Numbered from the stretch's first letter, positions 7,713 through 36,970 are shown. The stretch: 64,000 bases of DNA from Candidatus Falkowbacteria bacterium (GCA_003518055.1 DOZJ01000002.1:235097-299096), one strand, 5' to 3'. Numbers and translations are program-made. The notes: generated from the sequence alone by a model not told the origin.

Positions 7713-7994
7713 TCATTGAACTGTTCTTTTTCGTGTCCTGAAAGGATTGTCTGGGTCATTAACAAACAAATGTTGTTTTAATAATTCTACAACCTCTGGC
7801 AATCCTCGCAGCTTGTCAAGCTGGGTGTGGCATAGCAATTTTGTTTGGTCGACCATACCGAATTCGATACCTTGAATAATATCATTGATAATGCGGTAAT
7901 TTTTATCGTTGTTATATGCTTTCAAACCATCAACCAAAGATTGGTGATTAGCTGATAATTCAACTTTTTTCATCCCAAATAGTTCTAAGTCCAT
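7713..7994 (-). CDS. Hypothetical small protein
   Basis: 93-aa ORF packed between clpC and htpX on the same strand, with no recognisable motif. Confidence 0.4.
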   Translation of the reverse strand: MDLELFGMKKVELSANHQSLVDGLKAYNNDKNYRIINDIIQGIEFGMVDQTKLLCHTQLDKLRGLPEVVELLKQHLFVNDPDNPFRTRKRTVQ

Positions 7995-9098: not shown

Positions 9099-9662
9099 TC
9101 ATTTAAACACTTTCGGCGGTAATTTTTTTGGCCACTGACCAGTTTCCCTTTGCATCGCGATTTTCCACAGCAGATCACCGACGCGACCGTTGCCGTCTTC
9201 AAATGGATGAATCTCTTCAAATTCCTTGAAATAATCAGTTGGAGTTAGTGGTGGCCGACCCCAGTCGTCAGGATCGGTTGAAAATCCGTCTCGCAGCTGC
9301 TCCGCCAGCGCCGTACAAAGAGTTTCCATGGCTTGGGAGATTTTCGCTGGCTCGAGAGCAAATTTTCCATTCGCGAATCCCGCGGGAACTCGACGGAAGC
9401 CTTTTTTATTTCTTGGGTCGGTCAATTCAGCCCAATGTAGTATCATAACTAATAAATCATCTGCTGTTATGGTCGCAAATTTTTCTCCTGAGGCGAACAT
9501 TCTCTTGGCTTGAGCATACGCGGCGGCAAAGCCCCGTACATCGTCATCTTCAATCGCGTTTTGCTGTATACATTGCTTGATTATCAATCTGATGTCCGTC
9601 ATGGTTAAATCATCAGGGAATTTTAGATGTGTATAGGTTTTTTCGGGTTTGGGTCGTTCCAT
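9099..9662 (-). CDS. Fic/DOC family protein (putative adenylyltransferase/toxin-like)
   Basis: Canonical Fic motif HPFEDGNGRVGDL in a 187-aa protein. Confidence 0.8.
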   Translation of the reverse strand: MERPKPEKTYTHLKFPDDLTMTDIRLIIKQCIQQNAIEDDDVRGFAAAYAQAKRMFASGEKFATITADDLLVMILHWAELTDPRNKKGFRRVPAGFANGKFALEPAKISQAMETLCTALAEQLRDGFSTDPDDWGRPPLTPTDYFKEFEEIHPFEDGNGRVGDLLWKIAMQRETGQWPKKLPPKVFK

Positions 9663-9707: not shown

Positions 9708-9845
9708 AATAAATAGTATACAGTCATCAATGATGCGGACACGCAGCTGCTGCCTATCCGCACGCTTTATAACTATATCGGCTTGAAAGTCTTTAGCCTA
9801 TCAAGTTTTTGTAACGTTTCGTAATTTTTTGTAATTTCGTAACCC

Positions 9846-11776: not shown

Positions 11777-12268
11777 TTATGGTTCAACTTCAAACCATTG
11801 CCAGGTTTTCACGCACCAAGCAGCTTCTTTCCCCAAGTCATCCAACTTGACCTTTCGGCTGAAGTCTTGATCGTTGAAATAATCATAAGCTTCGATGTGC
11901 TTCATGGCAAATGGTAATGGCTCTGCGTTTCCCACAAAAAGCACGACCGGCACCACCAGAATGTTGATTCGCGGTCGCACTTCCATCATTCTGGACTGAT
12001 AATCAGTTCTCGCCGCTTGAATAAAACATGCTTTTGATTGGCCGAGTTCAACCTGGAAAATTGTGCGTTGACCGACGCGCATTTGCAATTCACTGCGATT
12101 GAGAATGTTGGCCGCTGGAAATTCCACGAACCGCCAAAAGATCCGCGGCGGTCTATCATAGGCTTGATGAACATATTCCAGACAGATGGTCCCACTATCC
12201 ATCGGCCCTCCTGCGGTGGTGTGGTTGCCGGAACAATTTACTATAATACTAAATAGCCCGGATGTCAA
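11777..12268 (-). CDS. Hypothetical protein
   Basis: 163-aa ORF with no recognisable motif. It is convergent with the preceding gene across a clean terminator. Confidence 0.4.
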   Translation of the reverse strand: MTSGLFSIIVNCSGNHTTAGGPMDSGTICLEYVHQAYDRPPRIFWRFVEFPAANILNRSELQMRVGQRTIFQVELGQSKACFIQAARTDYQSRMMEVRPRINILVVPVVLFVGNAEPLPFAMKHIEAYDYFNDQDFSRKVKLDDLGKEAAWCVKTWQWFEVEP

Positions 12269-12348
12269 TATTGGGCAAATATTTGCAAATATGCTAAAAT
12301 TTTTATTGTTTAGAACTTAGTAGTTAGAATTTAAAATTTTGTATTATT

Positions 12349-13716
12349 ATGTTCAAATTCAATACCTCAATTTTCAAAGCCTATGACATTCGTGGTATTT
12401 ATCAGCAGGATATAGATGCTGATCTGGCATTCAAAATCGGTCAAGCATTCGCCGTCTTTATGAAGACGGATGCCGGCAAAGAAAATCTGAATCTGGCGGT
12501 CGCTCGGGACATGCGTCTGTCGTCGCCGATTTTATATGACAAGGTGATTGAGGGCATCACAGCCCAAGGGGTTGATGTCACTGAATTTGGTCTGGCGTCC
12601 ACGCCAACGTTTTATTTCGGCGTCGGCAAGTTGAATTTGGACGGCGGGATTCAAGTCTCGGCTTCACACAATCCATCAGAATACAATGGATTTAAACTGG
12701 TCCGGCGGCAAGCGATTCCGGTCAGCGGCGACACCGGCATTATGCAAATTCGGGATTTGGTTATCTCCGATCAGTTTACTCCGGCGGCGAATCACGGTTC
12801 GGTCGCCCAATACAAAAACCTACTTGACGATCACGTGGCGTATGATTTGGAGTCTGTCGATGTCAGCCGTATCAAACCGCTAAAAGTGGTGGTGGACGCG
12901 GCCAACGCCATGGGCGGCCCGATGTTTGAAAAGTTATTTGCCAAATTACCCTGCGAGTTATTGAAATTAAATTTTGATTTGGATGGAACGTTTCCGGCGC
13001 ACGAAGCCGACCCTCTGAAAGATGCCAACAATCGGCAGCTTCAGCAAAAAGTTTTGGCGATGGGTGCGGATCTTGGTATCGCTCTTGATGGGGACGCTGA
13101 CCGTATCTTCTTCGTCACCAATGAAGGTGTAACAGTTGAGCCGGCGATTGTCCGAGGCATTTTGTCCCAAATTTTTCTGCGGGACAACCCCGGCGCGAAG
13201 ATTTGCTATGACATTCGCCCGGGCAAAATCACTCCCGATATGATTGTTGAAGCCGGCGGAACCCCGATTGTCACGAAAGTCGGTCATTCTCTGATCAAAG
13301 AAAAAGCGCGTGAAGTCGGCGCCGTGTTCGCCGGGGAGTCTAGTGGCCACTTTTTCGTCAAAATGCCGTTTGGTTTTTTTGAGGCGCCGATGATTTGCGC
13401 TTTAAAATTTTTGCAGGAAATTTCTGAGTCAGGCCAAACATTTTCCGCCTATGTAAAACCGCTGTATCGATACAGCCATTCCGGCGAGATTAATTTTGAG
13501 GTTAATGACAAGGGCATGGTCTTCCAAAAACTTCGAGATCGATATGTTGGTAATTTAAAATATGATTTTGACGGATTGAGTTTTGAGTGGGACGACTGGT
13601 GGTTCAATGTCCGGCCATCAAATACGGAAAATAAAGTCCGATTAAATTTGGAAGCGGTTAGCAGCGAAATCATGAATGAAAAAGTTAAAGAGGTAAGCGA
13701 TTTGATTCAAGGCTAA
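12349..13716 (+). CDS. Phosphomannomutase/phosphoglucomutase (alpha-D-phosphohexomutase family)
   Basis: N-terminal FKAYDIRG motif, active-site Ser loop SASHNPSEYNGFKL, Mg-binding DGDADR and the sugar-binding GESSGH motif. A candidate promoter TTGGGC-18-TGCTAAAAT lies about 50 nt upstream. Confidence 0.9.
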   Translation: MFKFNTSIFKAYDIRGIYQQDIDADLAFKIGQAFAVFMKTDAGKENLNLAVARDMRLSSPILYDKVIEGITAQGVDVTEFGLASTPTFYFGVGKLNLDGGIQVSASHNPSEYNGFKLVRRQAIPVSGDTGIMQIRDLVISDQFTPAANHGSVAQYKNLLDDHVAYDLESVDVSRIKPLKVVVDAANAMGGPMFEKLFAKLPCELLKLNFDLDGTFPAHEADPLKDANNRQLQQKVLAMGADLGIALDGDADRIFFVTNEGVTVEPAIVRGILSQIFLRDNPGAKICYDIRPGKITPDMIVEAGGTPIVTKVGHSLIKEKAREVGAVFAGESSGHFFVKMPFGFFEAPMICALKFLQEISESGQTFSAYVKPLYRYSHSGEINFEVNDKGMVFQKLRDRYVGNLKYDFDGLSFEWDDWWFNVRPSNTENKVRLNLEAVSSEIMNEKVKEVSDLIQG

Positions 13717-13801
13717 AAATTAAAAACCCGTCCGCCTCAAAAATAATAAAAAAAGCAGCTGGGTTCAGCTGTTTTTTTGGTGTCATGTTCAGAGAATATC
13801 A

Positions 13802-14137
13802 TTACTTGATCTTATGCTGGGCTCGCAGCCAATCTGTGAATCTGACCATATTACGATCCCTGACTTCCCAGCGATATGAGGCAGGGAGGAACCTGGACAT
13901 ATCACGGTTAAAATCATCAACCGAGTAATCTTCCTCCAGAAAATACGTCATTACCAGTTCCGCGTTACCATCGTGAGAATGTCGACTGAGAATCAGTCTT
14001 ACACTATGAGCGGGCTCATTTACTTCAAGCGTAATGCTCTGGTAAACCGGCCAGAAAATCGCATTCCAGAGAGTCCTCAGCCAATCCATGTTGTCCCTCC
14101 TTTTAGGGGGTGTGGAGCAAACATTATATGTTAGCAA
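13802..14137 (-). CDS. Hypothetical protein
   Basis: 111-aa ORF. The true start is probably MDWLRTLW at about 14089. Confidence 0.35.
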   Translation of the reverse strand: MLTYNVCSTPPKRRDNMDWLRTLWNAIFWPVYQSITLEVNEPAHSVRLILSRHSHDGNAELVMTYFLEEDYSVDDFNRDMSRFLPASYRWEVRDRNMVRFTDWLRAQHKIK

Positions 14138-14149
14138 AATAAGTATTTT

Positions 14150-14467
14150 TTGTCAAGGGTGGTTTTGATCATGATTGACAAATTTGAACTGGATTGCTAT
14201 ATTGTTTTTTGCCACTACAATCCCCATATCGGGGCAGGAGGGACAGCGTTGAGTCCTGAGGAACGAAAGGGTATCCGAGAGGCGGCCGAGTCCATTCTTA
14301 GCTCTAGCGCGACCGAAACCGCGGCCAAGAAGAAGCTGGAAAAGGCCAAAAAGCGCGAGCCTTTCAGAGGCGTCCCCATCAATTCACACTCAGTTCAGTT
14401 TAGTGGCTCAACTCGTTACGCGAAGATTCATATCTCCGGTGAACTGCCGATCGAGGTTCAAGTTTAA
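14150..14467 (+). CDS. Doubtful hypothetical ORF; the region may instead be non-coding structured RNA
   Basis: 105-aa ORF with a Lys/Glu-rich tail, in a locally GC-rich and self-complementary segment (GGGGCAGGAGGGAC ... GGCGTCCCC). There is no SD and the composition is unlike its neighbours. Confidence 0.25.
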   Translation: MSRVVLIMIDKFELDCYIVFCHYNPHIGAGGTALSPEERKGIREAAESILSSSATETAAKKKLEKAKKREPFRGVPINSHSVQFSGSTRYAKIHISGELPIEVQV

Positions 14468-14519
14468 CTTTTGACAGATAATAATCTGTCTTTTTAATTT
14501 TTACAAACCCCGGCCATAC

Positions 14520-14790
14520 TTTTGTCCGCCATAAGACGCCTGCCTGCCGGTAGGCAGGGACTCGTCCTCTGGCGAGTCGTTATAGTTATACTTTTGTAAA
14601 AGCCACGTCTTCTATAAGTGTTACTTCCGCTGCGCCCCTGCCTACCGGCAGGCAGGCGCCGGAGCTCTACGCCCTGTCCACCGACCTGTATGCCATAGCT
14701 TTAGCGAAGGCATAAGCGTTATGCGTAGGTGGAAGTAAGAGCGTAGGTGGGTAGTTACGGTTAAAGGAAACAAAAAAGATCTGTTTTTAC
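14520..14790. ncRNA. Candidate structured non-coding RNA of unassigned type
   Basis: A 20-nt long-range inverted repeat (CCTGCCTGCCGGTAGGCAGG at about 14540 pairs with CCTGCCTACCGGCAGGCAGG at about 14639). Local hairpins include GACTCG-N8-CGAGTC and TATGCC-N14-GGCATA, plus a direct repeat CGTAGGTGG x2. GC content is well above the flanks. The segment lies between convergent genes and has no ORF. Confidence 0.35.
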
Positions 14791-14797
14791 AGACCTC

Positions 14798-15172
14798 CTA
14801 CTTGGGGGAATACATCGATACGTTGCCGTTGGTTTGATGATACAGCTCCCTGACGACTCTCCGCACATTTCGAGTTACGCCATCCCAGAATCGTGAGAAG
14901 TTTCCGACATGTCCATCTGGCAGAGGTAAACCATTCGGTGCAATTTTTCCCGCATATTCATTGACCGCGTCCCTAATCATCGTCTGCAGTTCGTCTCGGC
15001 TGTAATTGGTCAAAATCACCATGAACTCGCTAAAGATCGAACCGGTCCCGTCAAAAATTTTAATCTTGACTTTTTCCGAGTTGGGATTCCCATGGTAGTC
15101 TGATTCCAGCAAGTAAACCAGAACAGTATTGCGATATGGTTCGAGAGACAGGACTTGGATTTGGCCAGCCAT
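14798..15172 (-). CDS. Hypothetical protein
   Basis: 124-aa ORF with no motif. Confidence 0.4.
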   Translation of the reverse strand: MAGQIQVLSLEPYRNTVLVYLLESDYHGNPNSEKVKIKIFDGTGSIFSEFMVILTNYSRDELQTMIRDAVNEYAGKIAPNGLPLPDGHVGNFSRFWDGVTRNVRRVVRELYHQTNGNVSMYSPK

Positions 15173-15185
15173 TCTGCCTCCGAGG

Positions 15186-15503
15186 TTAGCTGCTCTTCAG
15201 TTGTTTATTTTTCATTTTTTCAGCAATAAATTCTCTTACCTTGTCATTGCTTACAGCCAAAGATGGAACGGTTTTCGGCATATGAGCCGCCAATTCACGT
15301 CTCAGTTGTTCACTCGTATAGGTTGGCACCGCCTTGACAAAGTATACTTTTGTAACCGGCGATCCGGGTCGATTAGCCGGTTTGTGCTGAACGGTGATTT
15401 TGTATTCATTTTTCTTGTAGTTGTCATCCAGTCGAGTGGTGACTGTATAAGTCTCAGTTGAACCTTTTTGACCTGAAAAAAGCCGTTTTAGCCAGTTGAA
15501 CAT
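15186..15503 (-). CDS. Hypothetical protein
   Basis: 105-aa ORF directly upstream of, and co-oriented with, the preceding hypothetical. Confidence 0.4.
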   Translation of the reverse strand: MFNWLKRLFSGQKGSTETYTVTTRLDDNYKKNEYKITVQHKPANRPGSPVTKVYFVKAVPTYTSEQLRRELAAHMPKTVPSLAVSNDKVREFIAEKMKNKQLKSS

Positions 15504-18937: not shown

Positions 18938-19017
18938 AAAAATACAAAAAGACATGATTGATATTTCAAGCATGTTTTTTTATAGAAAAATCACCGTATT
19001 ATAACGATGATATGGAT

Positions 19018-19680
19018 TCAAAGGCACATACCCAGAACCTCACCACAGTCGTCGCTCGCCGGGCAATACCACATCTCTTCGAGACTGATGATGCAGCGTT
19101 TCTGAGCGCGGTTGTCCGGAGGTGTCAATGATTCAGGCGTCGGCGGAGTATCACCGCCGGTTACGTCGCCATGGTTGAAGCAGGGTTTCTCAATCTTGGT
19201 CGTCCGCAATGCACCAGAATCGTCAAAATACATGATGTCGATCAAACCGCAAAATTTGCCGCTGGTGAGAACCTTCAAGTCAACTTGATTTTGATAGGCG
19301 CTTGGCAGCGGGAATGACCGAGTCGAAACAATTTCATTGGTTCCGGGCATGTATTCAATGATTCGATGGAGCGCGTTATTATTCGTCTGCCAAGTGAATA
19401 GCAGCTTTGACTTTTCTTCGCCCCCACCGGTGCATTTGACCATCAACGCCGTGTCATCCGTGCCGTAGGGGTCAGCCGTGGTTTCTTCTGATAGGTTTGT
19501 CGACTCGGGCGGACAGAGAAGCATCGTATCGCCGGCAATCGGGGTGCTTTTCTTGCAGCCCAGAGAAAAAGCCACGAGTAGCAATGACAGAAACATTGTC
19601 GCGCGAATAAAATTTACTCGTTGTCTCGTCGTCATGTGGCCCCTCCGTTTGATGGTGATATGAACTCGATAATATAACAC
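19018..19680 (-). CDS. Predicted lipoprotein with a C-terminal Cys motif (GC-rich islet family)
   Basis: Lipobox LVAFSLGC after an N-terminal helix. The C-terminus YCPASDDCGEVLGMCL resembles WQCASDQSCGEMRGYCL of the 20647-21498 product. Confidence 0.55.
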   Translation of the reverse strand: MLYYRVHITIKRRGHMTTRQRVNFIRATMFLSLLLVAFSLGCKKSTPIAGDTMLLCPPESTNLSEETTADPYGTDDTALMVKCTGGGEEKSKLLFTWQTNNNALHRIIEYMPGTNEIVSTRSFPLPSAYQNQVDLKVLTSGKFCGLIDIMYFDDSGALRTTKIEKPCFNHGDVTGGDTPPTPESLTPPDNRAQKRCIISLEEMWYCPASDDCGEVLGMCL

Positions 19681-19883
19681 GGGTGAATAATATTGTCAAA
19701 CCCTCCCACCAGCCGCAGCCAAGCTGCGGCCGGTGGAGCGGACTTTTCATAAATCCAGCCAAATTTATGACTGGTTGTCGCATCAGCGCATGGCCGATGA
19801 GGATCTGTGAATTTTATTGACAAAAAGTAATGATTATGATAACGTTATTCGTTTCACCAGCTTCTACCTGAGGAGGGGGTATT

Positions 19884-20207
19884 ATGGATGACAAGCAGCT
19901 CTTGGTTGATGGTTATGTTTTCATTTTTTCCGGTTTCCAGCTTGGCTCTGCTCGTGATTGGGTTTGTTTTAGTCTTGAATGCGAGGGCGTCGAAGTTAGA
20001 CTGCTCGATGATAATCTGAGTGGCGTGAGTGTCAATCGCGACCGAAAAAAACCAATGATCACGATGCGGGTTAATCACTCGCCGCTTCCGATTGTTGTCG
20101 CCGGCCGGACATTCAGACTCATGTTCTCTGATAACTACGCTGGTGCAGCGTTGAAGTGGTTGGATGATGAGGGGTTCTCAAACGTTTTAGTATCAATTCC
20201 ATTTTGA
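19884..20207 (+). CDS. Hypothetical protein with a strong SD
   Basis: GAGGAGGGGG lies 10 nt upstream of the ATG. 107-aa ORF. Confidence 0.5.
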   Translation: MDDKQLLVDGYVFIFSGFQLGSARDWVCFSLECEGVEVRLLDDNLSGVSVNRDRKKPMITMRVNHSPLPIVVAGRTFRLMFSDNYAGAALKWLDDEGFSNVLVSIPF

Positions 20208-20493
20208 TGGTCTTATAGTCGATTAACAATCGGCTTTTTTGATTAAAATAATTTCGTTAATGTAAATTTCAAGCAGTCCGTGTGTTAAATAATTTAAACA
20301 GCTACATCCAAGCCAATACTATTTTTGTAAAATTTGCAGCGTCCGGTACCGCATGTTGGGTGGGTATATTTGTAATGTTTGTATTGATATGTAAATTTGT
20401 ATCCCAAGATTTGTAAATTACAAAACCCGCCAAATCTTTGACGGGTTGTCGAAGCGGCGCGTGGCGCCGCGGAGTTGGGGATATCAGACAAGA

Positions 20494-20637
20494 AAGAGGA
20501 TGAGGATCATGAGGCCGATCAGCGTGCCGATTCCCGAAAGGTGGATCAACATCACTGTCGCGTTAGTTTCCATCCTCAACTCGGCGAATGCTTGTTCGTG
20601 TTTTGTCATGTTTATCTCCCAGATTGCACAGCGTTAG
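20494..20637 (-). CDS. Candidate 47-aa hydrophobic peptide, below the ORF-track length cutoff
   Basis: Read on the minus strand: GGAG-N6-ATG, then MTKHEQAFAELRMETNATVMLIHLSGIGTLIGLMILILFLV-stop, followed by GC hairpins and a T-run (terminator-like). It starts 10 nt downstream of the upstream lipoprotein stop. Confidence 0.35.
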
Positions 20638-20646
20638 TGAACTTGG

Positions 20647-21498
20647 TCACTTGGGTGGAGCGGTCTTTCCGTCCCACGCGAGTTGGTCGAACATCGACTG
20701 CCAGAAGTCGTCTTTGTTTTCCGACTCGTCGACGTTCGGCTGCTGGGCGTCTGTTACGATCTCGGTCTCCGGCGCCAGGCAGTAGCCGCGCATTTCGCCG
20801 CAGCTCTGATCACTGGCGCATTGCCAGGTGACCCGGACTCCAGCGTCTTCACGCTGGCACAGAACCGGACCGACCATCTTAACGAGTTCGGCGGGGAGGT
20901 CGTCGTATTGTTCGCAGTCAATGTTGACTTTGAGTACGGAGAACTGCGAGATCCTGCGCTGCACGATCATGTTTCCGTGGCCGCAGATCAAACTCCCCAT
21001 GCTATCCCCGAGAGAGTACGTTCTTTCGAGCACGGTCTCGTGCTTCTCGACATCGAAATTGAATTGGGGATAAAGCTCGATGGTTCGAGTGACCACGCCG
21101 TTGTAATTCACGGCGTACTTGGTCTCGTACACGCGCTTCTCGTCCTTGTCGAAGCAGACGACTCGGTAGATCTTCTCGTTGTACTCATCCGGCGCCGTCA
21201 GCGTCTGGGTGCTCGTGCCTTCCGGACACGGCGGATGGATCTTCTGGATCGCTTCGGGCATCTCGGTCTGCGAGGTGACGCACCCCGACCCGAAGGTCGT
21301 GAGCAGGACGATGAACCCGAAGACGACCGCGGCCACGAAACAGCTGTACCACTCGTTCTTGCGCGTCATGATTTCATGTCCCTTTCCAAGGGGTGAATGG
21401 ATGACTAGAGACTGATTTAAGGAACTTAATTCACTATTATACCATATATTAAAGGAAAAATCAATAGTAACAGCCATTTTATAGCTTAGATTAGGCAA
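20647..21498 (-). CDS. Predicted lipoprotein, Cys-containing, GC-rich
   Basis: TM/lipobox LLTTFGSGC (the likely start is MTRKNEW, internal to the ORF). C-terminal CASDQSCGEMRGYC motif. GC content far above the genome background. The antisense ORF 20683-21396 is a GC artefact. Confidence 0.55.
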   Translation of the reverse strand: MPNLSYKMAVTIDFSFNIWYNSELSSLNQSLVIHSPLGKGHEIMTRKNEWYSCFVAAVVFGFIVLLTTFGSGCVTSQTEMPEAIQKIHPPCPEGTSTQTLTAPDEYNEKIYRVVCFDKDEKRVYETKYAVNYNGVVTRTIELYPQFNFDVEKHETVLERTYSLGDSMGSLICGHGNMIVQRRISQFSVLKVNIDCEQYDDLPAELVKMVGPVLCQREDAGVRVTWQCASDQSCGEMRGYCLAPETEIVTDAQQPNVDESENKDDFWQSMFDQLAWDGKTAPPK

Positions 21499-21583
21499 AA
21501 TATCTATTGACTTATTGACAGAATAAGCCGAATCAGCTATAATTTACTGTTTGTAGTCCAAACCACCAAGAGGAGGCCATATC

Positions 21584-22264
21584 ATGAATATTATCTTTCG
21601 GTCAGCTCTAATTTTTGGGGTGATTCTCCTCAGTAATATGGATGCAAGAGCTGATCTCCCGGGATCCATGAAGCGAATCTGCGCTCGGCAATGTCATGAG
21701 CCGGTTTATACCATTGAAATTCCGGCCGGTGAAATTCTGCTCGATCCGAGTGTGGGCTGTGTGGCTGGTTTGTATCATCAATGCAGCGCCGTGCTTGCTG
21801 TGGTGCAAGGTGATGGTACAGCTTTGCAATTTGCATTGAGAATGAGGTCAGATATCTGTCTGCGCGAGGAGATCATTTCCGGTCAGATTCAGGTTGTCTC
21901 TTGCGATTCAATGGTGAAAGGGCGCACATTGAAGTTTCTGGCGCCATCAGTCGGCGGCCGAGAGATTCAATGGACGGATTTGCCGGAGTTGATTGATCAT
22001 GAATGGCTGACGGATCTGGATGCCGATGGTGATCATCGGATTCGATTGGAGTGGGTAAAGGTCAAATCGGTTTTCAAACCCAAGCCCCGGCCCGGAGCTG
22101 AGGATCGCGAGACAGATCAGCTTGATGGTTTCACGACGGTTGATATTGCCGGCGTCAGACCGGTTTCCACCACCCTGGAATGCGATTGTCAGGCGTATTG
22201 GCAGGAGGTCCCCAAACCGACTCGAATCAAGGTTCGGTTTGTTCGTGGCCAATTTAAGGATTAG
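21584..22264 (+). CDS. Secreted hypothetical protein
   Basis: Strong SD AGAGGAGG. Signal peptide MNIIFRSALIFGVILLSNMDARA. GC-rich. Confidence 0.5.
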   Translation: MNIIFRSALIFGVILLSNMDARADLPGSMKRICARQCHEPVYTIEIPAGEILLDPSVGCVAGLYHQCSAVLAVVQGDGTALQFALRMRSDICLREEIISGQIQVVSCDSMVKGRTLKFLAPSVGGREIQWTDLPELIDHEWLTDLDADGDHRIRLEWVKVKSVFKPKPRPGAEDRETDQLDGFTTVDIAGVRPVSTTLECDCQAYWQEVPKPTRIKVRFVRGQFKD

Positions 22265-22327
22265 GAGTTATGCTAAGAGTCTGAAATCAGACTCGTTTTT
22301 ATTCTAAAAGATGAAGATGCGCCATGA

Positions 22328-23074
22328 TTGACAAAACGAAGGATATCCACTATAATTATTTGTTTGCTGCACACCCCAACCAGGAGGAGACAAATCATGG
22401 AAAACGCAGTTGATCGTTGGCATCGTTTTGAAGGTGATTTTATGGGAGCTTACTGCCGCCTCATGGCGACATTGGCAGTCATTCTGCTGATCGTGGTCCT
22501 CTGTATTGTTAGTTTCACTCGTCCGGTTAGTGCAGACGAGTCTCCTTTCTCACGCTGGAATGGCATGCAGTTTCAGACCAACCTTGGCGGCCGGCTGGGG
22601 CTGGTGGATACTCTGACCGGAGTGACCACTCTCAATCATTTTCATCTGCCCGAAGCCGATGTCAGCCAGCTGTTCTGGTACACCGGAGTTGATTGGAAGC
22701 CGACTGATTGGCTGTCCGTCTCACCCCGAGTGGGCATGACCGCAAAATTCTCGGCTGACGGCCAAGATATGTTTCTGGCATCACTCTGGCTGACGCTGAC
22801 ACCGGTTGATTATTTTTCCGTTTTTGTCGAGGGGGATTTCTATCTCAATGATGATCAGTATGATTATTACGGTTATTACGCGCTGGATTTTCTGACCGGT
22901 TCGCTTTTCAACGTGGGCTTCCAGGCCGAGGAAGTGAACCGCCTTGTAATCTTTGGCGCTCATGTTGGGACGTCCGTCGGAGTTTGGCACATCGAAGTCC
23001 AGTACTACACCGGATTGCAAGCTGAAAATTACGGCCATTCGGTCCGTCTGCTCAATGTCATCACTTTCGAATAA
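22328..23074 (+). CDS. Secreted hypothetical protein, beta-rich, possibly a barrel-like fold
   Basis: The likely start is MENAVDRWH (22395), preceded by AGGAGGAG. Signal/TM MATLAVILLIVVLCIVSF. Alternating hydrophobic pattern with an aromatic C-terminus. Confidence 0.45.
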   Translation: MTKRRISTIIICLLHTPTRRRQIMENAVDRWHRFEGDFMGAYCRLMATLAVILLIVVLCIVSFTRPVSADESPFSRWNGMQFQTNLGGRLGLVDTLTGVTTLNHFHLPEADVSQLFWYTGVDWKPTDWLSVSPRVGMTAKFSADGQDMFLASLWLTLTPVDYFSVFVEGDFYLNDDQYDYYGYYALDFLTGSLFNVGFQAEEVNRLVIFGAHVGTSVGVWHIEVQYYTGLQAENYGHSVRLLNVITFE

Positions 23075-23109
23075 CCACGACGCAGCACCGCCATAAAAGG
23101 AGGCAGTCA

Positions 23110-23490
23110 ATGAACCAGTCGGCCGCTGATCTGCATTTTGATGTTATCTATCTTGTCGTGGCGGCCTGCGATCTGGAGCGGCTTCGAAATGGTGAGTTCC
23201 TCCTTCCCCCTGTGCCGGCTTCGAATCTGATTTCCGAGCATCTGCGCGGCATCAAGACTCGAGATTGTATCAGGTTGACCCTGGAAATTTCCAAAAATCA
23301 TCGCGTTTTTGGCGGCTCGTTGATCTCTCGACTGTCCCCTGATTATCGGTCAGCGCTTGGCGCCAAGTATATGTTGAAGAATTTCTCAGAAACCTCGCCG
23401 ATTACGCCAGCCTATCTCAGTAGATTCGAGCGGGAAGATCGTGAAAAGATCGAGGCGCTGATGGCCGAGCTTGATAGCGAATTGGAGTGA
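23110..23490 (+). CDS. Hypothetical protein
   Basis: SD AAAGGAGG upstream. 126 aa. Confidence 0.45.
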   Translation: MNQSAADLHFDVIYLVVAACDLERLRNGEFLLPPVPASNLISEHLRGIKTRDCIRLTLEISKNHRVFGGSLISRLSPDYRSALGAKYMLKNFSETSPITPAYLSRFEREDREKIEALMAELDSELE

Positions 23491-23515
23491 GTGTTGATTA
23501 AACATCCTAACAGGG

Positions 23516-24283
23516 GTGTTTTTTTGTTGTCAAAATCAGCTGATTGTTATATTCTGGTTAATGGATAAACCGAAATTTATTGAAATTAAGAAATTAGGAA
23601 ATTCGTCGGTAGCCAATGAATTTCAATCAATTTCTACTAATTTCTCGCCGAAGGACGAATTCGTCCTATGGCGAACAACTAATTTCATTTTTAATTGTTA
23701 TATCATGAATATCCGCTTAATATTTTTTCAGCTGTTGGCGCCGATTTATGATTGGCTGCACTTTGCCAGCGTCGGCCGCACCGTTGCTGCTTTGCGGGTG
23801 TTGAATTTTCTGGGCCACGACAAAAAAGTTTTGGATCTTGGCGGCGGCACCGGCCGGCTTGCGCTTCGAATTAAAAATATGGTTGGCTCCCTTACCGTTG
23901 TAGACGCTTCAACCTCAATGTTGAAAGTCTGCCGGCGGCGCGGCTTGGACTGTCATTTGGGTTTGGCCGAGCAGATTCCTTTTCAGAAAAATTATTTTGA
24001 TTCCGTTGTTATCGTTGACGCCTGGCATCATTTTCCCGAACCGGAATCAGCCCTGAGAGAAATCAGCCGCGTACTCAAACCGGGCGGCCGGATATTTATC
24101 GAAGAAGTTAATCCGAGCAGTATTTTTGGTTGGTTGTTAAAATCAGTGGAAAATATTTTGCTTATGCGCAGCCGCTTTTATCATCCGGCCGACCTGTCGG
24201 CGTTGATGACCCGTCATTTTTCAGCCGTCGAAATTGTAAAATCAAACCCAAGGTTTTATTATGTGATCGGAACGAAGCATTAG
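23516..24283 (+). CDS. Class I SAM-dependent methyltransferase (Methyltransf_11-like)
   Basis: Motif I VLDLGGGTGRLAL, motif post-II VIVDAWHHF and LKPGGRIFIEE. The true start is probably MNIRLIFF at 23705, downstream of the hairpin repeat element. Confidence 0.75.
   Translation: MFFCCQNQLIVIFWLMDKPKFIEIKKLGNSSVANEFQSISTNFSPKDEFVLWRTTNFIFNCYIMNIRLIFFQLLAPIYDWLHFASVGRTVAALRVLNFLGHDKKVLDLGGGTGRLALRIKNMVGSLTVVDASTSMLKVCRRRGLDCHLGLAEQIPFQKNYFDSVVIVDAWHHFPEPESALREISRVLKPGGRIFIEEVNPSSIFGWLLKSVENILLMRSRFYHPADLSALMTRHFSAVEIVKSNPRFYYVIGTKH
23591..23688. repeat. Hairpin repeat element (copy 1), with an inverted partial copy upstream
   Basis: TAATTTCTCGCCGAAGGACGA-att-CGTCCTATGGCG (12-bp stem with one mismatch), preceded by the reverse-complement fragment GAAATTAGGAAATTCGTCGG. 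A near-identical copy lies at 49446-49507. Confidence 0.6.
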
Positions 24284-24392: not shown

Positions 24393-25265
24393 TTGCTGCT
24401 GTACTCGCTGTACTCGCTTTACTTGCTTTACTCGCTTTACTCGCTTTACTTGCTTTACTCGCTTTACTCGCTTATAACTTATCTCGCTTATTCTATGATT
24501 GGTGTTTTTGACTCCGGTCTCGGCGGTCTGACCGTGCTCAAAGAATTGATCGCCCAAAATCCGACCGAAGATTATCTGTATCTCGGTGACACAGCTCATC
24601 TGCCATACGGCAATCGTTCGGCTGAAAATATTTATGAATTAACGCGAACAGCGGTAGGTTTTTTATTTAATAATGGCGCTGGCAAAGTTATTATCGCCTG
24701 CAACACCGCCTCGGCCAAAGCCTTACCTAGATTAGAAAAAAAATATTCGGAAAAAGTGATCGGTGTGATTGATCCGGTGGTTGAATATTTCGCGTCTTTG
24801 CCGGTGACTCGAATCGGGGTAATCGGTACGCGGGCGACGATTGGCTCGGATATTTATCATCAAGAAATAAAAAAAATGGCGCCGGCAAAAGAGATTTTTT
24901 CCATTGCAGCGCCGCTTCTGGTTCCGTTGGTCGAGGAAGATTTCAGCCATCGGCCGGAAACGGAGAGCATTTTACGGGAATATCTAAATGTGTTAAAATT
25001 GAACAAAGTTGAAGCCCTGATTTTGGGCTGCACTCATTATCCTATGCTGCTTGAAGTGGTCAAAAAGATTATGGGTGCGGAATGCCTGGTACCGAATCCC
25101 GCTGCCATTGTGGCTGAGGCCACGGCCAAAAGGTGGAACCTTGACGGTTCTCTCGGGCGTGAAGGCCGCCGCCGGTATCTCGTGACTGACTTGACTGCCA
25201 ATTTTGAAATCGCGGCTGAGCGGTTTTTGGGGCATAAAATTCATTTGGAGAAGATAAATTTATAA
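24393..25265 (+). CDS. murI: Glutamate racemase MurI
   Basis: GVFDSGLGGLTVL N-terminal motif, the active-site Cys regions (IIACNTAS, ILGCTHYP) and a length of about 257 aa from the true start MIGVFDSG at about 24495. The ORF-track N-terminal extension is translated repeat DNA. Confidence 0.9.
   Translation: MLLYSLYSLYLLYSLYSLYLLYSLYSLITYLAYSMIGVFDSGLGGLTVLKELIAQNPTEDYLYLGDTAHLPYGNRSAENIYELTRTAVGFLFNNGAGKVIIACNTASAKALPRLEKKYSEKVIGVIDPVVEYFASLPVTRIGVIGTRATIGSDIYHQEIKKMAPAKEIFSIAAPLLVPLVEEDFSHRPETESILREYLNVLKLNKVEALILGCTHYPMLLEVVKKIMGAECLVPNPAAIVAEATAKRWNLDGSLGREGRRRYLVTDLTANFEIAAERFLGHKIHLEKINL
24399..24470. repeat. Tandem repeat, 8 units of the 9-bp CT[GT]TACT[CT]G
   Basis: ctgtactcg ctgtactcg ctttacttg ctttactcg ctttactcg ctttacttg ctttactcg ctttactcg, immediately upstream of the murI start. 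Confidence 0.85.
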
Positions 25266-28178: not shown

Positions 28179-28484
28179 TTGAACCCAAGAGGGAGCGGGA
28201 GGTTAGCCATGACTTTGGGACAGCTGCGTCGATTCATTACTGGTATTTTGGAAAAAGAAAATCAATATCCGCCGGCCCAATTTCAGCAGTTTTTGTTGTT
28301 TAGGGATGAGTTGATGATGGCGCTGGAGAATGATTTGGGGATAGTTAAGCGCCCCGGCGAGTCTTTTGACTCCTATTATCACAAGCTGGATCGCTATTCT
28401 TCGAGCTGGTCTCTGGGTTACTCCACGTCGCAGGTGGTCCGCAAAATGTCGGTTTTGATGGATGTCCCCGGCCCGGCTGGTTAA
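28179..28484 (+). CDS. Hypothetical protein (GC-rich islet)
   Basis: Likely start ATG 28209, preceded by GGGAGCGGGAGG. Confidence 0.4.
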   Translation: MNPRGSGRLAMTLGQLRRFITGILEKENQYPPAQFQQFLLFRDELMMALENDLGIVKRPGESFDSYYHKLDRYSSSWSLGYSTSQVVRKMSVLMDVPGPAG

Positions 28485-28681
28485 AAATTTCTCAAAGACG
28501 AAACCTCGTCTTTTTTTGTATTTATAGCTAAATAAGTGTAATTATTTCATTGTGGAGCTGCCCGCTACAAGCTAACAGCTGAAAGCTAGGAGGTGTAACG
28601 ATTGACTTTTTACATAAATTATGATATAATACTAAGTTACCAAATTGACAACTACCCGGCTGATTCCAGCCAACACGCCAC

Positions 28682-29464
28682 ATGGAGGCAAACATGCGTG
28701 CGATCCTGATGTCCGTTCTCGTTTCGTTCGTCGTCCTGACCGCCTGCAACCAGTCCGGGCCAGTGGAGTCGAACCAGCCCGGCACCAACAGCGACCAGCC
28801 GGCAGTCGACGACTCCGTCGTCGAGCCGGCCGAGGCGGTCGAGCCGTACATCGTGAGCGTCTGCTACGACACCCTCGACGTCCGCGCGCACCTCATCAAG
28901 GCCGAGCTGCGGTACCGCTACGACGACATGACCTACGAGACGGTCGTGTCGAGCGAGACGTCCGGCAACTGCGTCATCTTCGACGTGGACATGGCCCGGG
29001 TCGCCGAGGGCTTCCAGTTCACGCCTCACCCCTTCGACCTCATGCCCGATGGCACGGTCTTCGATCACGACTGGTACGAGGAAAAGCCGACGGCTTTTCT
29101 CGGCCGACGTGAACTGACGGTCGACCCCGTCATCGGTCAGGATCTTGTCCCCGGCGACTCGTGGTTTTTCGGTCAGATGAGCTGCGACAAGGAGATGCTC
29201 TTCACTCATCGCGGCTCCTGCTGGCAGTTCGGCGGCCATGGCTATCTGGAACTCATCGACTGTGTGTGCGGCGAGATCAATGATGTGCCGGTGGTCAAGT
29301 GCCGATTCATCAGCCGAGAGCGCGACGACGAGACCATGGTCGAGGAGTACGACCTTGAATTCGCCTCACACGGATGCATGATCCACGAGTGCGATGGTGT
29401 CCAGTGCTCAAACCGCCAGTACACCTGCGTGCAGGGAGAGTGCGACTACTCTCAGCCCCTCTAA
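28682..29464 (+). CDS. Predicted lipoprotein, Cys-rich C-terminus, GC-rich
   Basis: SD GGAGG. Lipobox VVLTAC. The C-terminal half is Cys-rich (CDKEMLFTHRGSCWQ ... CVCGE ... HGCMIHECDGVQCSNRQYTCVQGEC). The local GC content makes the overlapping ORFs 28645-29112 and 28652-29239 artefacts. Confidence 0.55.
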   Translation: MEANMRAILMSVLVSFVVLTACNQSGPVESNQPGTNSDQPAVDDSVVEPAEAVEPYIVSVCYDTLDVRAHLIKAELRYRYDDMTYETVVSSETSGNCVIFDVDMARVAEGFQFTPHPFDLMPDGTVFDHDWYEEKPTAFLGRRELTVDPVIGQDLVPGDSWFFGQMSCDKEMLFTHRGSCWQFGGHGYLELIDCVCGEINDVPVVKCRFISRERDDETMVEEYDLEFASHGCMIHECDGVQCSNRQYTCVQGECDYSQPL

Positions 29465-29686
29465 CCCCCTGTTCATTCCTACCGACTTCGGATAAATTCC
29501 CAAATTTTCACATTGAGACGTGTAAATCGCGTCTCTTTATTTTTGATTTAAAAACATCACAATTCATGGTGTTGTTTTTTTTACCAAGATCAGACGCCGT
29601 ATATTATTAGTAATTGATCCGCCCGATTAAATATGATTTTGAAAAATAAATTCTCAAGTATGACTTGAGATTTAATATTATTATCC

Positions 29687-30034
29687 TTATTTTACCGCCA
29701 GAGCCGCAACCTTGGCCAGCATCTCACCGCAGTTAAATGGTTTAACCACCACCAGACTGGCCTTCGAGTGTTTGATATTATCATTCCCGGTTATCAGCAC
29801 CGCGATCAGGTCAGGAAAATGGTCTTCCACATAATCAAGCAGCTCCATTCCATCCATGCCCGGCATGGACAAGTCAGTAATGAGAATTGTAACTGGATTA
29901 TCTTTAGAATTATTAAGCAGTTTGATCGCTTCCTGACCGTCAGCCACGGCAGTAAAATCATAGCCGCCTCGCGCCGCGTACCGACACATTAACTCACGGA
30001 TCGGCTCTTCATCATCAACGAATAACATTCTCAT
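29687..30034 (-). CDS. Single-domain response regulator (CheY-like receiver)
   Basis: Receiver motifs: DD at positions 7-8, phospho-acceptor ILITDLSMPGMDG, and a conserved T/K region (LITGN ... KPF). Confidence 0.8.
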   Translation of the reverse strand: MRMLFVDDEEPIRELMCRYAARGGYDFTAVADGQEAIKLLNNSKDNPVTILITDLSMPGMDGMELLDYVEDHFPDLIAVLITGNDNIKHSKASLVVVKPFNCGEMLAKVAALAVK

Positions 30035-30093
30035 CGAAGTTCCCTCCTCTAGTTGTTCCGTAAAAATTAGTTATTTAAAAAGACTCCGATATT

Positions 30094-30477
30094 TCAGAGC
30101 CTTAGGCTGTTCAATTTCTGCCGTTTATTTTCATTGATGAACAACGCACAGGCTTCTCTCACCGCTCGATCATAGGCCTCGCGATCTTCGCCGAGGTGAA
30201 AGTGGCCGAAATGAATCAGATGATCCGCTGAAATTGTGGCGGGGAGAAATCCCTTTCTGCCTTGATAATCCATTCCATGACTAATCGTCGCTGTGACACT
30301 GCTGGTGACCAGAATTCTGTCTTCAGCATGCTGCTCAATGTCTTGGTCAGTCCTTGGTTCCGGGCAGGGTTCGAACTGCTGGTTGTTGTGGCGCCATGCC
30401 GTGCTCCCCATCATGACCCCTCCACGGTGGTGGTAAATGGAATTTATAATTATAGAGAAATAGTTATTTTTTGTCAA
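30094..30477 (-). CDS. Hypothetical protein, His-rich, upstream of the response regulator
   Basis: Likely start MMGSTAWRH at about 30430. Contains HLIHFGHFHLGED. No secure family assignment. Confidence 0.35.
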   Translation of the reverse strand: MTKNNYFSIIINSIYHHRGGVMMGSTAWRHNNQQFEPCPEPRTDQDIEQHAEDRILVTSSVTATISHGMDYQGRKGFLPATISADHLIHFGHFHLGEDREAYDRAVREACALFINENKRQKLNSLRL

Positions 30478-30675
30478 GTTTATTTGTGCGGGGAAGTGTT
30501 TTGCCAGATATCAACTGTGAGTGGTTTATTGGTGGCTAACGCTGGTTTTATGCTATAATTTAACCAGAAATAATGTAAATTATATTACTAATTTACTAAT
30601 ACTACAAAAATTACAGAAACTACACTTGATGTTTTTGTAACTATTTGTAATGTTTTGTAATTTTGTAACACCAAT

Positions 30676-31674: not shown

Positions 31675-34600
31675 TTGCTTATGGCCTATGAAGTCTCGGC
31701 TGTTTCAACGCTGGGAAATAATCACGAACACCGAGAAAATTCAACTGAAAAAATAACCAAGCCCGAGGCCGGTCTCGAGCGTGATATTTTGGCACTCAAC
31801 CAAAAAGTAGAAGCTGAGTTTCGTCGAGTCAAGCAAGCTTTGGATCGAGTTGTGGCCGGATCTTTGGTCGAGATAGCTCCCAGTCAGCCGCGAGCTGATG
31901 TTGTTTTTGATTCAATCAGGCAGGATCTGGAATCAATGAAACAATCAATGACCGATATCACCGCCATGAAATCACCGGATGTTTTGGCCGCTCAGTTGAC
32001 GGAGATCAATCAGAAGCTGGCGGAGTACAGTGGGTGGCAGGAACAGCAAGCTGAAGCTGCCGCAGCCTTGTCGTGGGAGTTGGAAAACCAACAAACAAAA
32101 ATTGCCGACCTTGAAGTAGCGTTGGAATCGGAGCGACAAAGAAATTTTTTTGTTAGACCGTTTAGAGAAAAAAACCGTCAGCGACTGGCTGCTGCTATCG
32201 ATGAGGCGAACAAAGTCAAAACCGCGTTATACGCCCGGCGTCAGGAAATCAAGCATCAAATTCATCAGCTGCAAGATTCATTGTATGAATTAGACAATCT
32301 TCGCCGTGATTTTGCGCCTCAGACATTAAAACTGAGTTTGGAGCAAGTAAAACAAAATTATTTGGAGCTGCAGTCCAAGCTGACGTCATCGGAAGCCAAA
32401 CAACAGATGAACCAATACTTAATTGAGAATGAAGTCCGGCCTGATCTCGATCGGGCTGTAGCTGATGGCGAAATTACCGAGGCCGCGGCATCAGAGTTTA
32501 TTCAACTTCTTTCCGCTGAGGTTGTTCAGGGGTTCACCAATTTGGTTTTTGGGATGTCACGTGAAGTCGGAGATGAAATTCAGCACCGTAATGAGCGGTT
32601 TCGCCGGCTGGAACAAAAAAAACCGACCTATATTTTTGAAACCTTACGGGCCAAAATCAGCGACCAATCAAGAGGGGTGGCTCCCGACGCTTATTTTAAT
32701 CCGATTATCGCTTATTTTTTGCGTAATTTATATCGCCGGCACACGTCGGAGCTCAGCTCCTCCGCCGCGGTTTTGAGCCAGACCGGTTGGATTACTTATG
32801 ATCATATTGTTGACGATGCAGACCGTGGTTTTGATTTTGAATTAGATAATCAGTCGGTTTTGCCGGCCGCGCGAAGTTTGGTCCAATCGGAGGGGCTTAT
32901 ACGGCTTAGATCGGTCGGACGCTTTTTGATCGATTCCGGTGTATTAACGCCGGCAGAATTCGAGGCGGAGCGCCAAAAAATGTATCGCGAGATTCTGGAT
33001 CACAATTTATCACCGGAGCCGAGCGATGATAAGTACGATGAAATTAATCGCGGAGCCAAAAAATTAGAAGAACTCAGTGATGTTCGACTGGTGCCCGAGC
33101 TGCTCACAAAAATTCAAGATCAAGCATATGATTCCAAAGACCCGATTCACGATCATTGCTTGGGCAAGTTGACTGATCTTTTTTCCTCCCTGCTTGGATC
33201 AGCCAAACCGGAAGAGGTATCAGCTGTTATGCAGAAATTGGAACCCCAGCAGAGAGAACTGATCTCGCTGATCATGGATAAAACGTCTTTTGCTCATACT
33301 TTTGGTAAAATCAGGAACGTTGTCAGGCATGGCGGCGAAGTTCTAGCCAAGGAAAAGCGTTTCCGGTCTTTGAAAGAACTTGGTTGGGAAACGCCGGATT
33401 TATTTGCTTTGTATGAAATGCGGTTGGCGCGTGGGCGCGATCTGAATTTACTGGTTAAAAGCGCGAATGATCTCGGTGAAAATCCCAAAGAAGTTATTAC
33501 TGCTCAGCTGGGAACAATCAAACGGAAATGGTTCAACCTGTCCGATGTTGATCGCCGCCAAGCAGTTGAGCTGCTGGCTCCGATCTTGGGGGAGAAACCA
33601 AAAGATTTATTTTTGACTTTTGTTCATGATCGGTTCAAACCGGCGGAGAGTCCGACCGACAAAGATCCTCTCGTCGCTTATTTGGCGACTATGCATGAGT
33701 ATGATGAATTGTTGGCGGTGATTGAGCTTTTTGATCAGGACAAAGAGAATTTTATTCTGCGGAATTTGTCCGTAATCGTTGAGCGAATGGTCTTGACCCA
33801 CGTGCGGCCGGAAACCCAAAAACGCGCCATTATCCGAATCGGGCAGGATCTCGGGTGGTCTGAAGCCCAAGCGATTGCCATCTGTTTGCCCCAGATTCTC
33901 CAATCTCAGTTGAAGTTTGAACGCAACACGGTCAAATCAAAGGGGGTTCAGGAATATCTGAAATTTTTTATCGCCGGTCAAGATTATGGCGAGCTGGTCG
34001 CCAAATTACTTGGCTTTCATCTGCAGGTTGAGGCGGAAAATTTAGATCGCGCCACTCGGATGGCCGCCGCTGTCGACACACCGGAGATGGTTGAGGCGAA
34101 AATAAAACAGGCCTCCGGTTTGGCCATGTTGGCTATCGACGGCGCTGAGCAATTTACCGGCCGGCTGGTGGCTGAGTATCGCGGCGGCCGTGAAGATGAT
34201 GAAGTTGTCTCGCGGTTAATGTCCCTCTATTCTTTTCTCCGTGATTTTGAAAGCCGGCAGAATCATCATGAATATACCACCAAACTGGAAGCTATCGTTG
34301 TCGGCGGCAAGATCAGCGGACTTCAATCAATGTATGAATCGGTCAGCGCGAATTTTCAACAGATGGTGAATGAAGCACCGCGGCTTTTCGCTGACGTGGC
34401 TGATCGGGAAATGTGGATTGAATTGGTTGGTCCCGACCGCATCAAGGAATTTCTTGATCGGCTGCCCAAGTCGTCGGATGAAAAACGCAACGCCCTTACT
34501 CACAATCAATATGATCGCACCTCAATTTTCCTGTCTTCCCTGATGAGCAATCTTAAATTTTCTCCTTTATTTGAAGGTGAAAGTGAAGTGGTTCTCGATC

Positions 34601-36951: not shown

Positions 36952-36970
36952 GGCAAGCTGATATAAAGAA

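Follow-up and report, generated by a model that had tools for sequence, protein, structure and literature searches.

How does a group of genes with strong Shine-Dalgarno (SD) sequences come to lie in a genome whose conserved genes start without them? The question is raised by a stretch of 64,000 nucleotides (nt) from Candidatus Falkowbacteria, within the Candidate Phyla Radiation (CPR, Patescibacteria), bacteria that are uncultured and whose gene expression and gene acquisition are largely unknown. This stretch, referred to here as the window, has a GC content of 45.8% and carries at 19018-23490 an islet of ~4.5 kb, which an earlier note had described as a GC-rich set of SD-bearing lipoprotein and secreted genes taken from an SD-using, higher-GC donor. 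We found that the islet is made of five autonomous transcription units, that its genes belong to a class separated from the core genes by several start and promoter signals at once, and that the closest relative lacks it. The islet was probably acquired horizontally and piecemeal, as self-sufficient cassettes drawn from a pool of genes with canonical promoters and SDs.

Anatomy of the islet

What does the islet consist of? Its seven open reading frames (ORFs) form five autonomous units: A on the minus strand, B on the plus strand, C with a 41-amino-acid (aa) ORF on the minus strand, D on the plus strand, and E with F on the plus strand. All five have a promoter-like sequence of sigma-70 type, matching 9-12 of 12 consensus positions with a 17-nt spacer, and all five end in a stem-loop with a T-run that matches the consensus of an intrinsic terminator. 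The leaders, from the end of the -10 element to the ATG, measure 35-66 nt. A strong GGAGG lies 6-9 nt before the ATG of five of the seven ORFs (A, B, D, E and F), with predicted anti-SD pairing energies of -10.0 to -12.3 kcal/mol. The four SDs quoted in the earlier note are found where it placed them, before B, D, E and F, and A adds a fifth. These sites go beyond chance. That note had ascribed strong sites to the islet genes at large, but C and the 41-aa ORF have only weak purine-rich ones (-5.9 and -7.3 kcal/mol).

Gene A (19018..19635, minus strand) encodes a putative lipoprotein of 205 aa. Its predicted promoter, TTGACA-17-TATATT with a TG (19671..19699, minus strand), matches 11/12 positions and its -10 element ends 35 nt from the ATG; the SD, ACGGAGGGG (19640..19648, minus strand, -10.0 kcal/mol), has its GGAGG 6 nt from the ATG, and a predicted stem-loop and T-run (18990..19011, minus strand) lies 7 nt beyond the stop codon. 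Gene B (19884..20207, plus strand; 107 aa) has the weakest promoter call of the islet, a 9/12 match of the form TTGACA-17-TAACGT with TGa ahead of it as in an extended -10 element (19817..19845, plus strand), 38 nt from the ATG at 19884. It has the SD with the lowest energy, GAGGAGGGGG (19870..19879, plus strand, -12.3 kcal/mol), and a predicted terminator at 20217..20235 (plus strand). Gene C (20647..21369, minus strand), for a putative lipoprotein of 240 aa, is preceded by TTGATT-17-TATAAT with a TG (21436..21464, minus strand; 10/12), a 66-nt leader and a weak SD-like GGAAAGGGA. The 41-aa ORF follows 37 nt downstream (20484..20609, minus strand; weak SD GGGAGA, -7.3 kcal/mol); it is annotated as a gene in public assemblies too, and the predicted terminator of the unit lies at 20424..20447 (minus strand).

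Two units have a perfect TTGACA-17-TATAAT (12/12), each 40 nt from its ATG. For gene D (21584..22264, plus strand; 226 aa) it stands at 21515..21543 (plus strand), followed by the SD AGAGGAGG (21569..21576, plus strand, -11.9 kcal/mol; ATG at 21584), with a predicted terminator at 22277..22294 (plus strand). For the E-F unit it stands at 22328..22356 (plus strand), followed by the SD AGGAGGAG (22382..22389, plus strand, -10.3 kcal/mol; ATG at 22397) and gene E (22397..23074, plus strand; 225 aa). Within the 35-nt spacer between E and F lies the SD of F, AAAGGAGG (23096..23103, plus strand, -11.8 kcal/mol; ATG at 23110). Gene F (23110..23490, plus strand; 126 aa) is second in the unit, whose predicted terminator (23500..23521, plus strand) marks the right edge of the islet.

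Which products do these units encode? Signal peptides, lipoboxes and location calls were read by eye from the translations. A and C have a signal peptide and a lipobox (...LLLVAFSLG-C and ...VLLTTFGSG-C), which we take to fit the PROSITE-type lipobox rule. A has 9 Cys and a C-terminal motif C-x5-CGE-x2-G-x-CL, C has 10 Cys, and the two are paralogues (BLASTP 6e-6) with Cys positions conserved between them. A terminator-like segment of 44 nt is likewise duplicated, at 20422-20465 (the terminator of the C unit) and at 19751-19794 (upstream of the A promoter), with 80% identity, a pattern that fits the local duplication that may have given A and C. D (signal peptide ...DARA/DL; 8 Cys) and E are predicted to be secreted, the 41-aa product appears to be a tail-anchored membrane peptide with a C-terminal anchor, and B and F look cytoplasmic. 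The description of the islet as lipoprotein and secreted genes thus held for A, C, D and E and failed for the other three. E appears rich in beta-strands: in a check for an outer-membrane beta-barrel and its beta-signal, its hydrophobic residues alternate, and its C-terminus reads ...ITFE, that of its one homologue ...SVSF. AlphaFold2 gave unusable models for both E (two-sequence alignment, predicted local distance difference test (pLDDT) 37) and D (single sequence, pLDDT 33). Neither an Lgt nor an LspA gene lies within the window. The islet genes look real, because GC at first codon positions (GC1) exceeds that at second positions (GC2) in every one of them, because four of them (A, C, D and E) encode a signal peptide or lipobox, and because the Cys residues of A and C are conserved.

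Two classes of genes in one window

Are SDs confined to this islet, in a genome that otherwise lacks them? Anti-SD pairing energies were predicted for 62 window genes with curated starts, and their distribution is bimodal, with 19 genes at -8.5 kcal/mol or below and 43 at -7.3 or above. Of random 20-mers drawn from the window, 2.3% reach -8.5, so that 19 of 62 has a binomial P of 1.5e-16, and control positions inside genes score as SD in only 1-2 of 62. For the islet, five of seven genes at -10 or below gives P 1e-9, or P 7e-8 with the islet's own composition. Spacing from GGAGG to the start is 4-9 nt over the whole SD class. The core genes named in the earlier note, whose identities Pfam confirmed, do lack an SD: gap, ligA, ddl, pgm, rseP, murI and the clpC-type gene score between -2.4 and +1.9 kcal/mol, and htpX -6.9. 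The SD finding of the earlier note therefore holds, and it proves stronger and wider than the note had it: in the window those 19 genes bear SDs and at least four further islets are present. The SD-class layout extends over at least 21 window genes, at 11.8-15.5 kb (11777-15503), 19.0-23.5 kb (the present islet), 28.2-30.4 kb (28209-30414), 54.3-56.2 kb (54291-56163) and 58.7-60.9 kb (58731-60858), the four further islets likewise combining SDs with consensus promoters. When the window was extended by 10 kb on each side (20 kb in total, 84 kb surveyed), more units of this class appeared in the added flanks (L107 17398-18077; L109 17448-18678), along with Cas12a and additional core genes.

The promoters divide the genes in the same way. 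Among SD-class units, 15 of 18 have a promoter score of at least 10/12, always with a 17-nt spacer, whereas the best score upstream of core genes averages 8.25, against 7.7 for random background. Perfect TTGACA-N17-TATAAT occurs five times in the window (0.01 expected), each time before an SD-class gene and twice in the islet. How, then, do the core genes start? The base at -1 is T in 34 of 41 core genes (83%) and in only 2 of 21 SD-class genes (P 2e-8), and the 20 nt upstream of core genes contain 8.5% G and 40% A (for example at the starts 12349, 24495, 30676 and 38975). This context fits SD-independent initiation, and T at -1 could possibly act through an extended U(-1)-A37 codon-anticodon contact. 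Core genes of the relative (L007, introduced below) likewise have T at -1.

Is the islet also foreign in composition? The claim that its GC content is far above background was overstated: GC at 19001-23500 is 0.495 against 0.458 for the window, which ranks fourth among 120 windows of 4.5 kb across the stretch, with higher values elsewhere, and C alone stands out as GC-rich (0.584; 0.805 at third codon positions, GC3). Deviation in tetranucleotides is another matter, as the islet ranks first of the 120 (0.209; mean 0.154, standard deviation 0.017). Synonymous codon use separates the SD class from the core (chi2 292, 41 degrees of freedom, P 1e-39), and the per-gene likelihood under core codon usage is lower for the SD class (Mann-Whitney P 1e-4). 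The k-mer and codon comparison that the earlier note proposed thus did not refute its reading. The codon shift falls mainly on two-fold sites (AAA 0.77 in the core and 0.42 in the SD class, CAA 0.60 and 0.36, TTT 0.69 and 0.49), and the SD class nearly avoids ATA (0.12 in the core, 0.01) and TTA (0.15 in the core, 0.03).

The two classes differ in what they encode as well. Pfam families were found in 1 of 21 SD-class genes and in 24 of the 33 SD-less genes tested (P 6e-7). There are SD-less accessory genes too, namely Fic, PD-(D/E)XK, an IS200-like Y1 transposase and a Cas12a operon, all of known families and several of them AT-rich. The SD therefore tracks a particular gene pool and not accessory status as such.

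Comparison with the closest relative

Does a related genome have the islet? The closest species-level genome is that of Cand. Falkowbacteria RIFOXYC2_FULL_36_12 (loci L007 and L055), with 35% GC and an RlmN of 71% identity, and the comparison of gene order and gene absence rests on this one genome. Both share the order ClpC-type, HtpX, LemA, DUF8173, PGM, cupin, TrmA-like, RlmN, murI, RseP, two conserved hypotheticals and GAPDH. The islet, flanked by RlmN, a methyltransferase and murI, widens the RlmN-murI gap to 6.07 kb, compared with ~1.07 kb in the relative, and tblastn detected no counterpart of any islet protein in L007 or L055. Over the syntenic stretch, none of the 16 SD-class genes has a counterpart in the relative, as against 15 of 21 SD-less genes (P 6e-6).

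The relative's RlmN-murI gap is not empty. It holds one different cassette, made of TTGACT-17-TATAAT, the sequence AAGGAGGGG and a 70-aa ORF (L007 6294-6506). In a genome of 35% GC this ORF reaches 63%, almost every codon having G or C in third position, so the cassette cannot have resided there for long. Its product is homologous to that of a 72-aa SD-class gene of the window (14249-14467; 44% identity, E 4e-13), which sits in a different gap. The two share the motif TAAKKKLEKA...SVxF, and both copies have their own promoter, SD and terminator; one cassette family thus occupies different junctions in two genomes. In tblastn against GenBank phages and PLSDB plasmids the L007 70-aa protein had no match.

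Further relatives of the junction were sought by an RlmN scan of metagenomes, in which the close matches were the L007 strain only. More distant CPR loci do not keep the synteny and therefore give no means of telling gain from loss. Eleven public contigs encode islet protein D, and those with a location shown come from groundwater metagenome samples. All public contigs with the islet agree with the window at 99.98-100% identity, over up to 20.7 kb, and for this reason a comparison of strains gives no information on diversity.

Some smaller features of these gaps may be mentioned here. In the window, the 72-aa cassette is followed by GC-rich non-coding DNA (14500-14760) with the paired palindromes CCTGCCTGCCGGTAGGCAGG and CCTGCCTACCGGCAGGCAGG, which had no Rfam match. 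The relative has, in several gaps (L007 6520-7130, 2971-3029 and 14068-14614), repeated elements of 60-90 nt with up to 99% identity, among them a duplicated terminator-like motif TTCACTGCGGTGGGYCTTTTTTCG; these elements occupy junctions where the window has SD-class cassettes.

Homologues of the islet proteins

Can a donor be named? Neither Pfam, PHROGs and NCBIfam with all islet proteins nor PADLOC with all but the 41-aa ORF gave a match. C found only itself among 5.8e9 proteins, a profile of A and C found only these two, and D, by full HMMER against 1.84e9 (1.84 billion) cluster representatives, found only itself. E has a single homologue (P0003; 41% identity with many invariant residues), encoded on a 963-nt contig of unknown taxon (L106). 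The layout of that contig is E-like: it has a TTGACA-17-TAGGAT promoter, the SD AAAGGAGG, an encoded signal peptide and also a terminator. For B and F the searches covered the four family collections above and, by tblastn, GenBank phages, and gave no match. Scans of IMG/VR with profiles of E, A/C and the 72-aa family returned no relatives, and sequence searches of the PDB with the E profile, D and the A/C profile returned nothing meaningful. As C, D and the A/C profile match only themselves and E has just the one homologue on that contig, no donor can be named, and the homologue search that was to give its taxonomy yielded no affiliation.

Where does the islet come from?

Imported DNA is the most likely source, because the units bring promoters, ribosome-binding sites and terminators that the organism's conserved genes lack. 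Absence from the relative, the deviation in tetranucleotides and codons, the missing T(-1) context and the near-consensus promoters further support a foreign origin, and we infer gain in this lineage from them. That part of the earlier proposal stands; a donor of higher GC is neither identified nor required. The islet resembles its flanks in neither codon usage nor k-mers and has no syntenic homologues in the relative, so that the refuting test set by the earlier note does not refute its reading. In the mechanism that we propose, the islet would be one of at least five flexible islets, placed in the gap between the conserved RlmN and murI. Self-sufficient cassettes, each with promoter, SD and terminator, would arrive there one by one by horizontal transfer, and a single local duplication would have yielded the paralogues A and C. 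Their strain-specific products, of unknown fold, may work on the cell surface, for instance where it meets hosts or phages. The core genes meanwhile use separate signals, with no SD, no recognisable -35/-10 consensus, a G-depleted A/T-rich leader and T(-1).

Several points weigh against this proposal. Promoters, terminators and signal peptides are predicted as matches to consensus, the excess of GC over the window is only 3-4 points, and no donor lineage is identified. The islet showed neither an integrase nor attC-like sites, a tRNA gene or direct repeats at its flanks; a Y1_Tnp-like gene lies 15 kb away. With a single relative, gain is not formally polarised against loss, and in a sparsely sampled lineage orphan status is also expected of native genes that evolve fast. 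There is also the matter of the ribosome: the CCTCCT anti-SD motif is reported missing in about half of Parcubacteria, Falkowbacteria not being named (PMC9297842).

Could the islet instead be native? The main rival to an origin from foreign cassettes holds that these are lineage-specific, fast-evolving surface genes, for which promoter, SD and terminator form a specialised module for high or conditional expression, with two initiation regimes in one genome. It draws on the stereotyped layout repeated in ~18 units and at least five islets of this genome, on two homologue pairs that still share SD and promoter at 41-44% aa identity, which suggests maintenance by selection, and on the orphan status that rapid evolution under sparse sampling would produce. 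There are precedents as well, in genomes that mix SD-led and SD-independent initiation (PMC6028130) and in the SD-specific translation by a ribosome subpopulation in Flavobacterium (PMC9976891). We nevertheless judge a native origin rather unlikely, since codon usage, tetranucleotides and the -1 context all deviate from the core genes, the relative has no counterparts and its gaps are too short for them, and a homologous cassette of 63% GC at another locus of a 35% GC genome is hard to square with long residence. Moreover, none of these signals is seen at two genes that are usually well expressed, those for GAPDH and the ClpC-type protein. A less probable view takes the units for true phage morons that outlived the decay of a prophage or other integrated element. 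They do match the description of morons in being extra relative to a syntenic genome, differing in composition and having their own promoter and terminator (PMC3594210), and their cargo of lipoproteins and small membrane proteins is moron-like. Yet no islet protein has a PHROG match, IMG/VR (E and A/C profiles) and GenBank phages (B and F) gave none either, integrase, att-like repeats and tRNA gene were absent, and the units are scattered singly or in small groups over many gaps in 84 kb instead of forming one block.

Might the ORFs be spurious or dead, with chance SD-like strings in GC-richer non-coding DNA? In favour of this idea, no family, structure or expression evidence exists for any product, but it is very improbable given an SD enrichment far above chance at canonical spacing, promoters and terminators that bracket each ORF, codon-position GC periodicity, signal peptides and lipoboxes, the A-C paralogy with its conserved Cys, and a homologue of E at 41% identity. 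An assembly chimera, or a binning contaminant from an SD-using organism, would account for composition and expression signals unlike those of the flanking genes. It can practically be dismissed, as the same sequence with both core-gene junctions is found in at least six independent assemblies from several runs at 99.98-100% identity, and units of the same class are interleaved with core genes along the 84 kb. Integron cassettes were also considered and rejected: unit boundaries share no imperfect inverted repeats, an integrase domain is lacking, and every unit has its own promoter.

Relation to known systems

Does the islet resemble anything described before? The closest known concept is the phage moron, here in a chromosome and outside the phage context that defines it. 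Lipoproteins and small membrane proteins, such as lambda bor and lom or HK97 gp15, are typical moron cargo. A moron is defined as an obvious addition of different GC content with its own promoter and terminator, and HK97 gp15 is described among them (Cumby, Davidson and Maxwell 2012, PMC3594210). By analogy, the islet units are added DNA that separates genes lying side by side in a syntenic relative. Their composition is unlike that of the surrounding genes, each has its own promoter and terminator, they encode small lipoproteins, membrane and secreted proteins, and they come without recognisable insertion machinery. Unlike morons, they sit between housekeeping genes of a CPR chromosome, with no phage genes or homologues found, and they differ from their neighbours in the initiation signal itself (SD versus a G-poor leader with T(-1)), a feature outside the moron concept. 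The islet also shares traits with the flexible islands or hypervariable regions of streamlined genomes: it lies at a conserved core junction where content varies between relatives, has an atypical k-mer and codon signature, and carries surface or secreted cargo of mostly unknown function. In contrast to such islands it is very small (4.5 kb), has no tRNA, integrase or flanking repeats, equips its genes individually with consensus expression signals, and has neither a detectable donor nor detectable homologues beyond that of E.

How do other lineages handle SDs that their core genes do not use? In Bacteroidia the anti-SD is intact and sequestered by bS21, bS18 and bS6, and ribosomes lacking bS21 read SD-led messages better; in Flavobacteriales SDs fall below chance frequency, and typically one gene, rpsU, keeps its SD, for autoregulation (PMC9976891). 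As in these SD-poor lineages (Bacteroidia, Parcubacteria), core genes of the window start without an SD behind A/T-rich, G-poor leaders and a minority of genes have strong SDs. The difference from Flavobacteriales is that here ~30% of the genes in 64 kb have strong SDs, and that these are accessory orphans, not ribosomal genes. Two start architectures in one genome are also a feature of the mixed-initiation genomes of GeneMarkS-2 group C (PMC6028130). In the window the split runs between core and accessory genes and coincides with promoter type, codon usage and conservation. Group C genomes are reportedly split by operon position, the first gene being leaderless and the internal genes SD-led. 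Unlike that arrangement, internal core genes of the window have no SD, and the internal accessory gene F has one.

What the signals may mean

The interest of this locus is the cleanness with which expression signals divide core from flexible genes in a CPR bacterium. In the window, SD, promoter consensus, -1 base and codon usage jointly split conserved from accessory genes, and for the SD and the -1 base the two groups hardly overlap. The split offers an inexpensive way to mark the flexible genome of such organisms from sequence alone, and it would carry the concept of promoter-gene-terminator modules over from phages to a streamlined symbiont's chromosome. The candidate surface and secreted proteins, Cys-rich lipoproteins and a beta-rich secreted protein among them, may mediate contact with hosts or phages. 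But can a Falkowbacteria ribosome, whose own genes ignore the SD, read SD-led messages at all? We infer that the signals of the cassettes work in this host.

A bolder idea, which we hold only tentatively and regard as improbable on balance, is that the organism keeps two deliberately separate expression systems, an SD-independent one with T(-1) and non-consensus promoters for the core, and SD and sigma-70 cassettes for flexible, mostly secreted or surface orphans, with the SD maintained and not just a relic of the donor. If so, the SD would be an entry requirement for the expression of foreign genes, or a handle for separate control of the accessory surface proteome. Such control could be exerted by a ribosome subpopulation with a free anti-SD, comparable to the bS21-lacking ribosomes of Flavobacterium. 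Were this true across Parcubacteria, the type of ribosome-binding site would directly mark the flexible genome.

Other features of the window

The other SD-class islets encode a lipoprotein of 256 aa with 13 Cys and 62% GC (28694-29464) and a membrane protein of 596 aa (58731-60521), and their sole Pfam match is a response regulator (29687-30034). Neither the window nor the 20 kb added at its ends contains an rRNA gene, and tRNA and Rfam scans of the window and of L007 gave no match.

Among SD-less genes, a Fic/DOC-family gene (9099-9662) and a 93-aa AT-rich ORF (7713-7994) lie with HtpX in between, and tblastn found no counterpart of either in the relative. The right end of the window (62670-64000) holds the first part of a type V-A CRISPR-Cas locus, which continues in the flank (L107 11020-17119); two ORFs (723 and 718 aa) were called for Cas12a, and Cas4, Cas1 and Cas2 come next, all SD-less with GC 0.34-0.38, and no CRISPR array occurs within 2 kb downstream of cas2. 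Three very large SD-less genes encode proteins of 1489 aa (31681-36150), 1215 aa (40995-44642) and 978 aa (45645-48581). The 1489-aa and 1215-aa proteins are paralogous to each other (24% identity over 615 aa, E 3e-41), Pfam found no family in the 1489-aa and 978-aa proteins, and in the relative no counterpart of the 1489-aa gene stands between GAPDH and a prepilin-peptidase-like gene.

Repeats are found both at the islet edge and elsewhere. The IS200-like Y1 transposase gene (38066-38662), whose product is like the transposases associated with repetitive extragenic palindromic (REP) elements (RAYT-like), contains a perfect 44-nt palindrome (38358-38401). A repeat of ~90 nt, perhaps a REP-like element, occurs at 23589-23673 and at 49402-49493 and contains a hairpin, CGCCGAAGGACG-N4-CGTCCTATGGCG, in which the second copy shows a compensatory change. 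At the right edge of the islet, the first copy falls within the annotated N-terminal part of the methyltransferase, and the true start of that gene may therefore be the ATG at 23711.

Short G-poor tandem repeats, finally, stand directly upstream of murI, the gene at 51057, queH, a uvrD-like gene, the gene at 37055 and GAPDH, with one extra copy just downstream of LemA (24397-24473, 51005-51041, 53570-53620, 56507-56554, 36960-37000, 9806-9842 and 30631-30669). Their units are of the types GCTTTACTC (eight copies), CTAACCCCTAATCG, TCTCAATTC and TTTTGTAAC, and they may be native leader or promoter elements.

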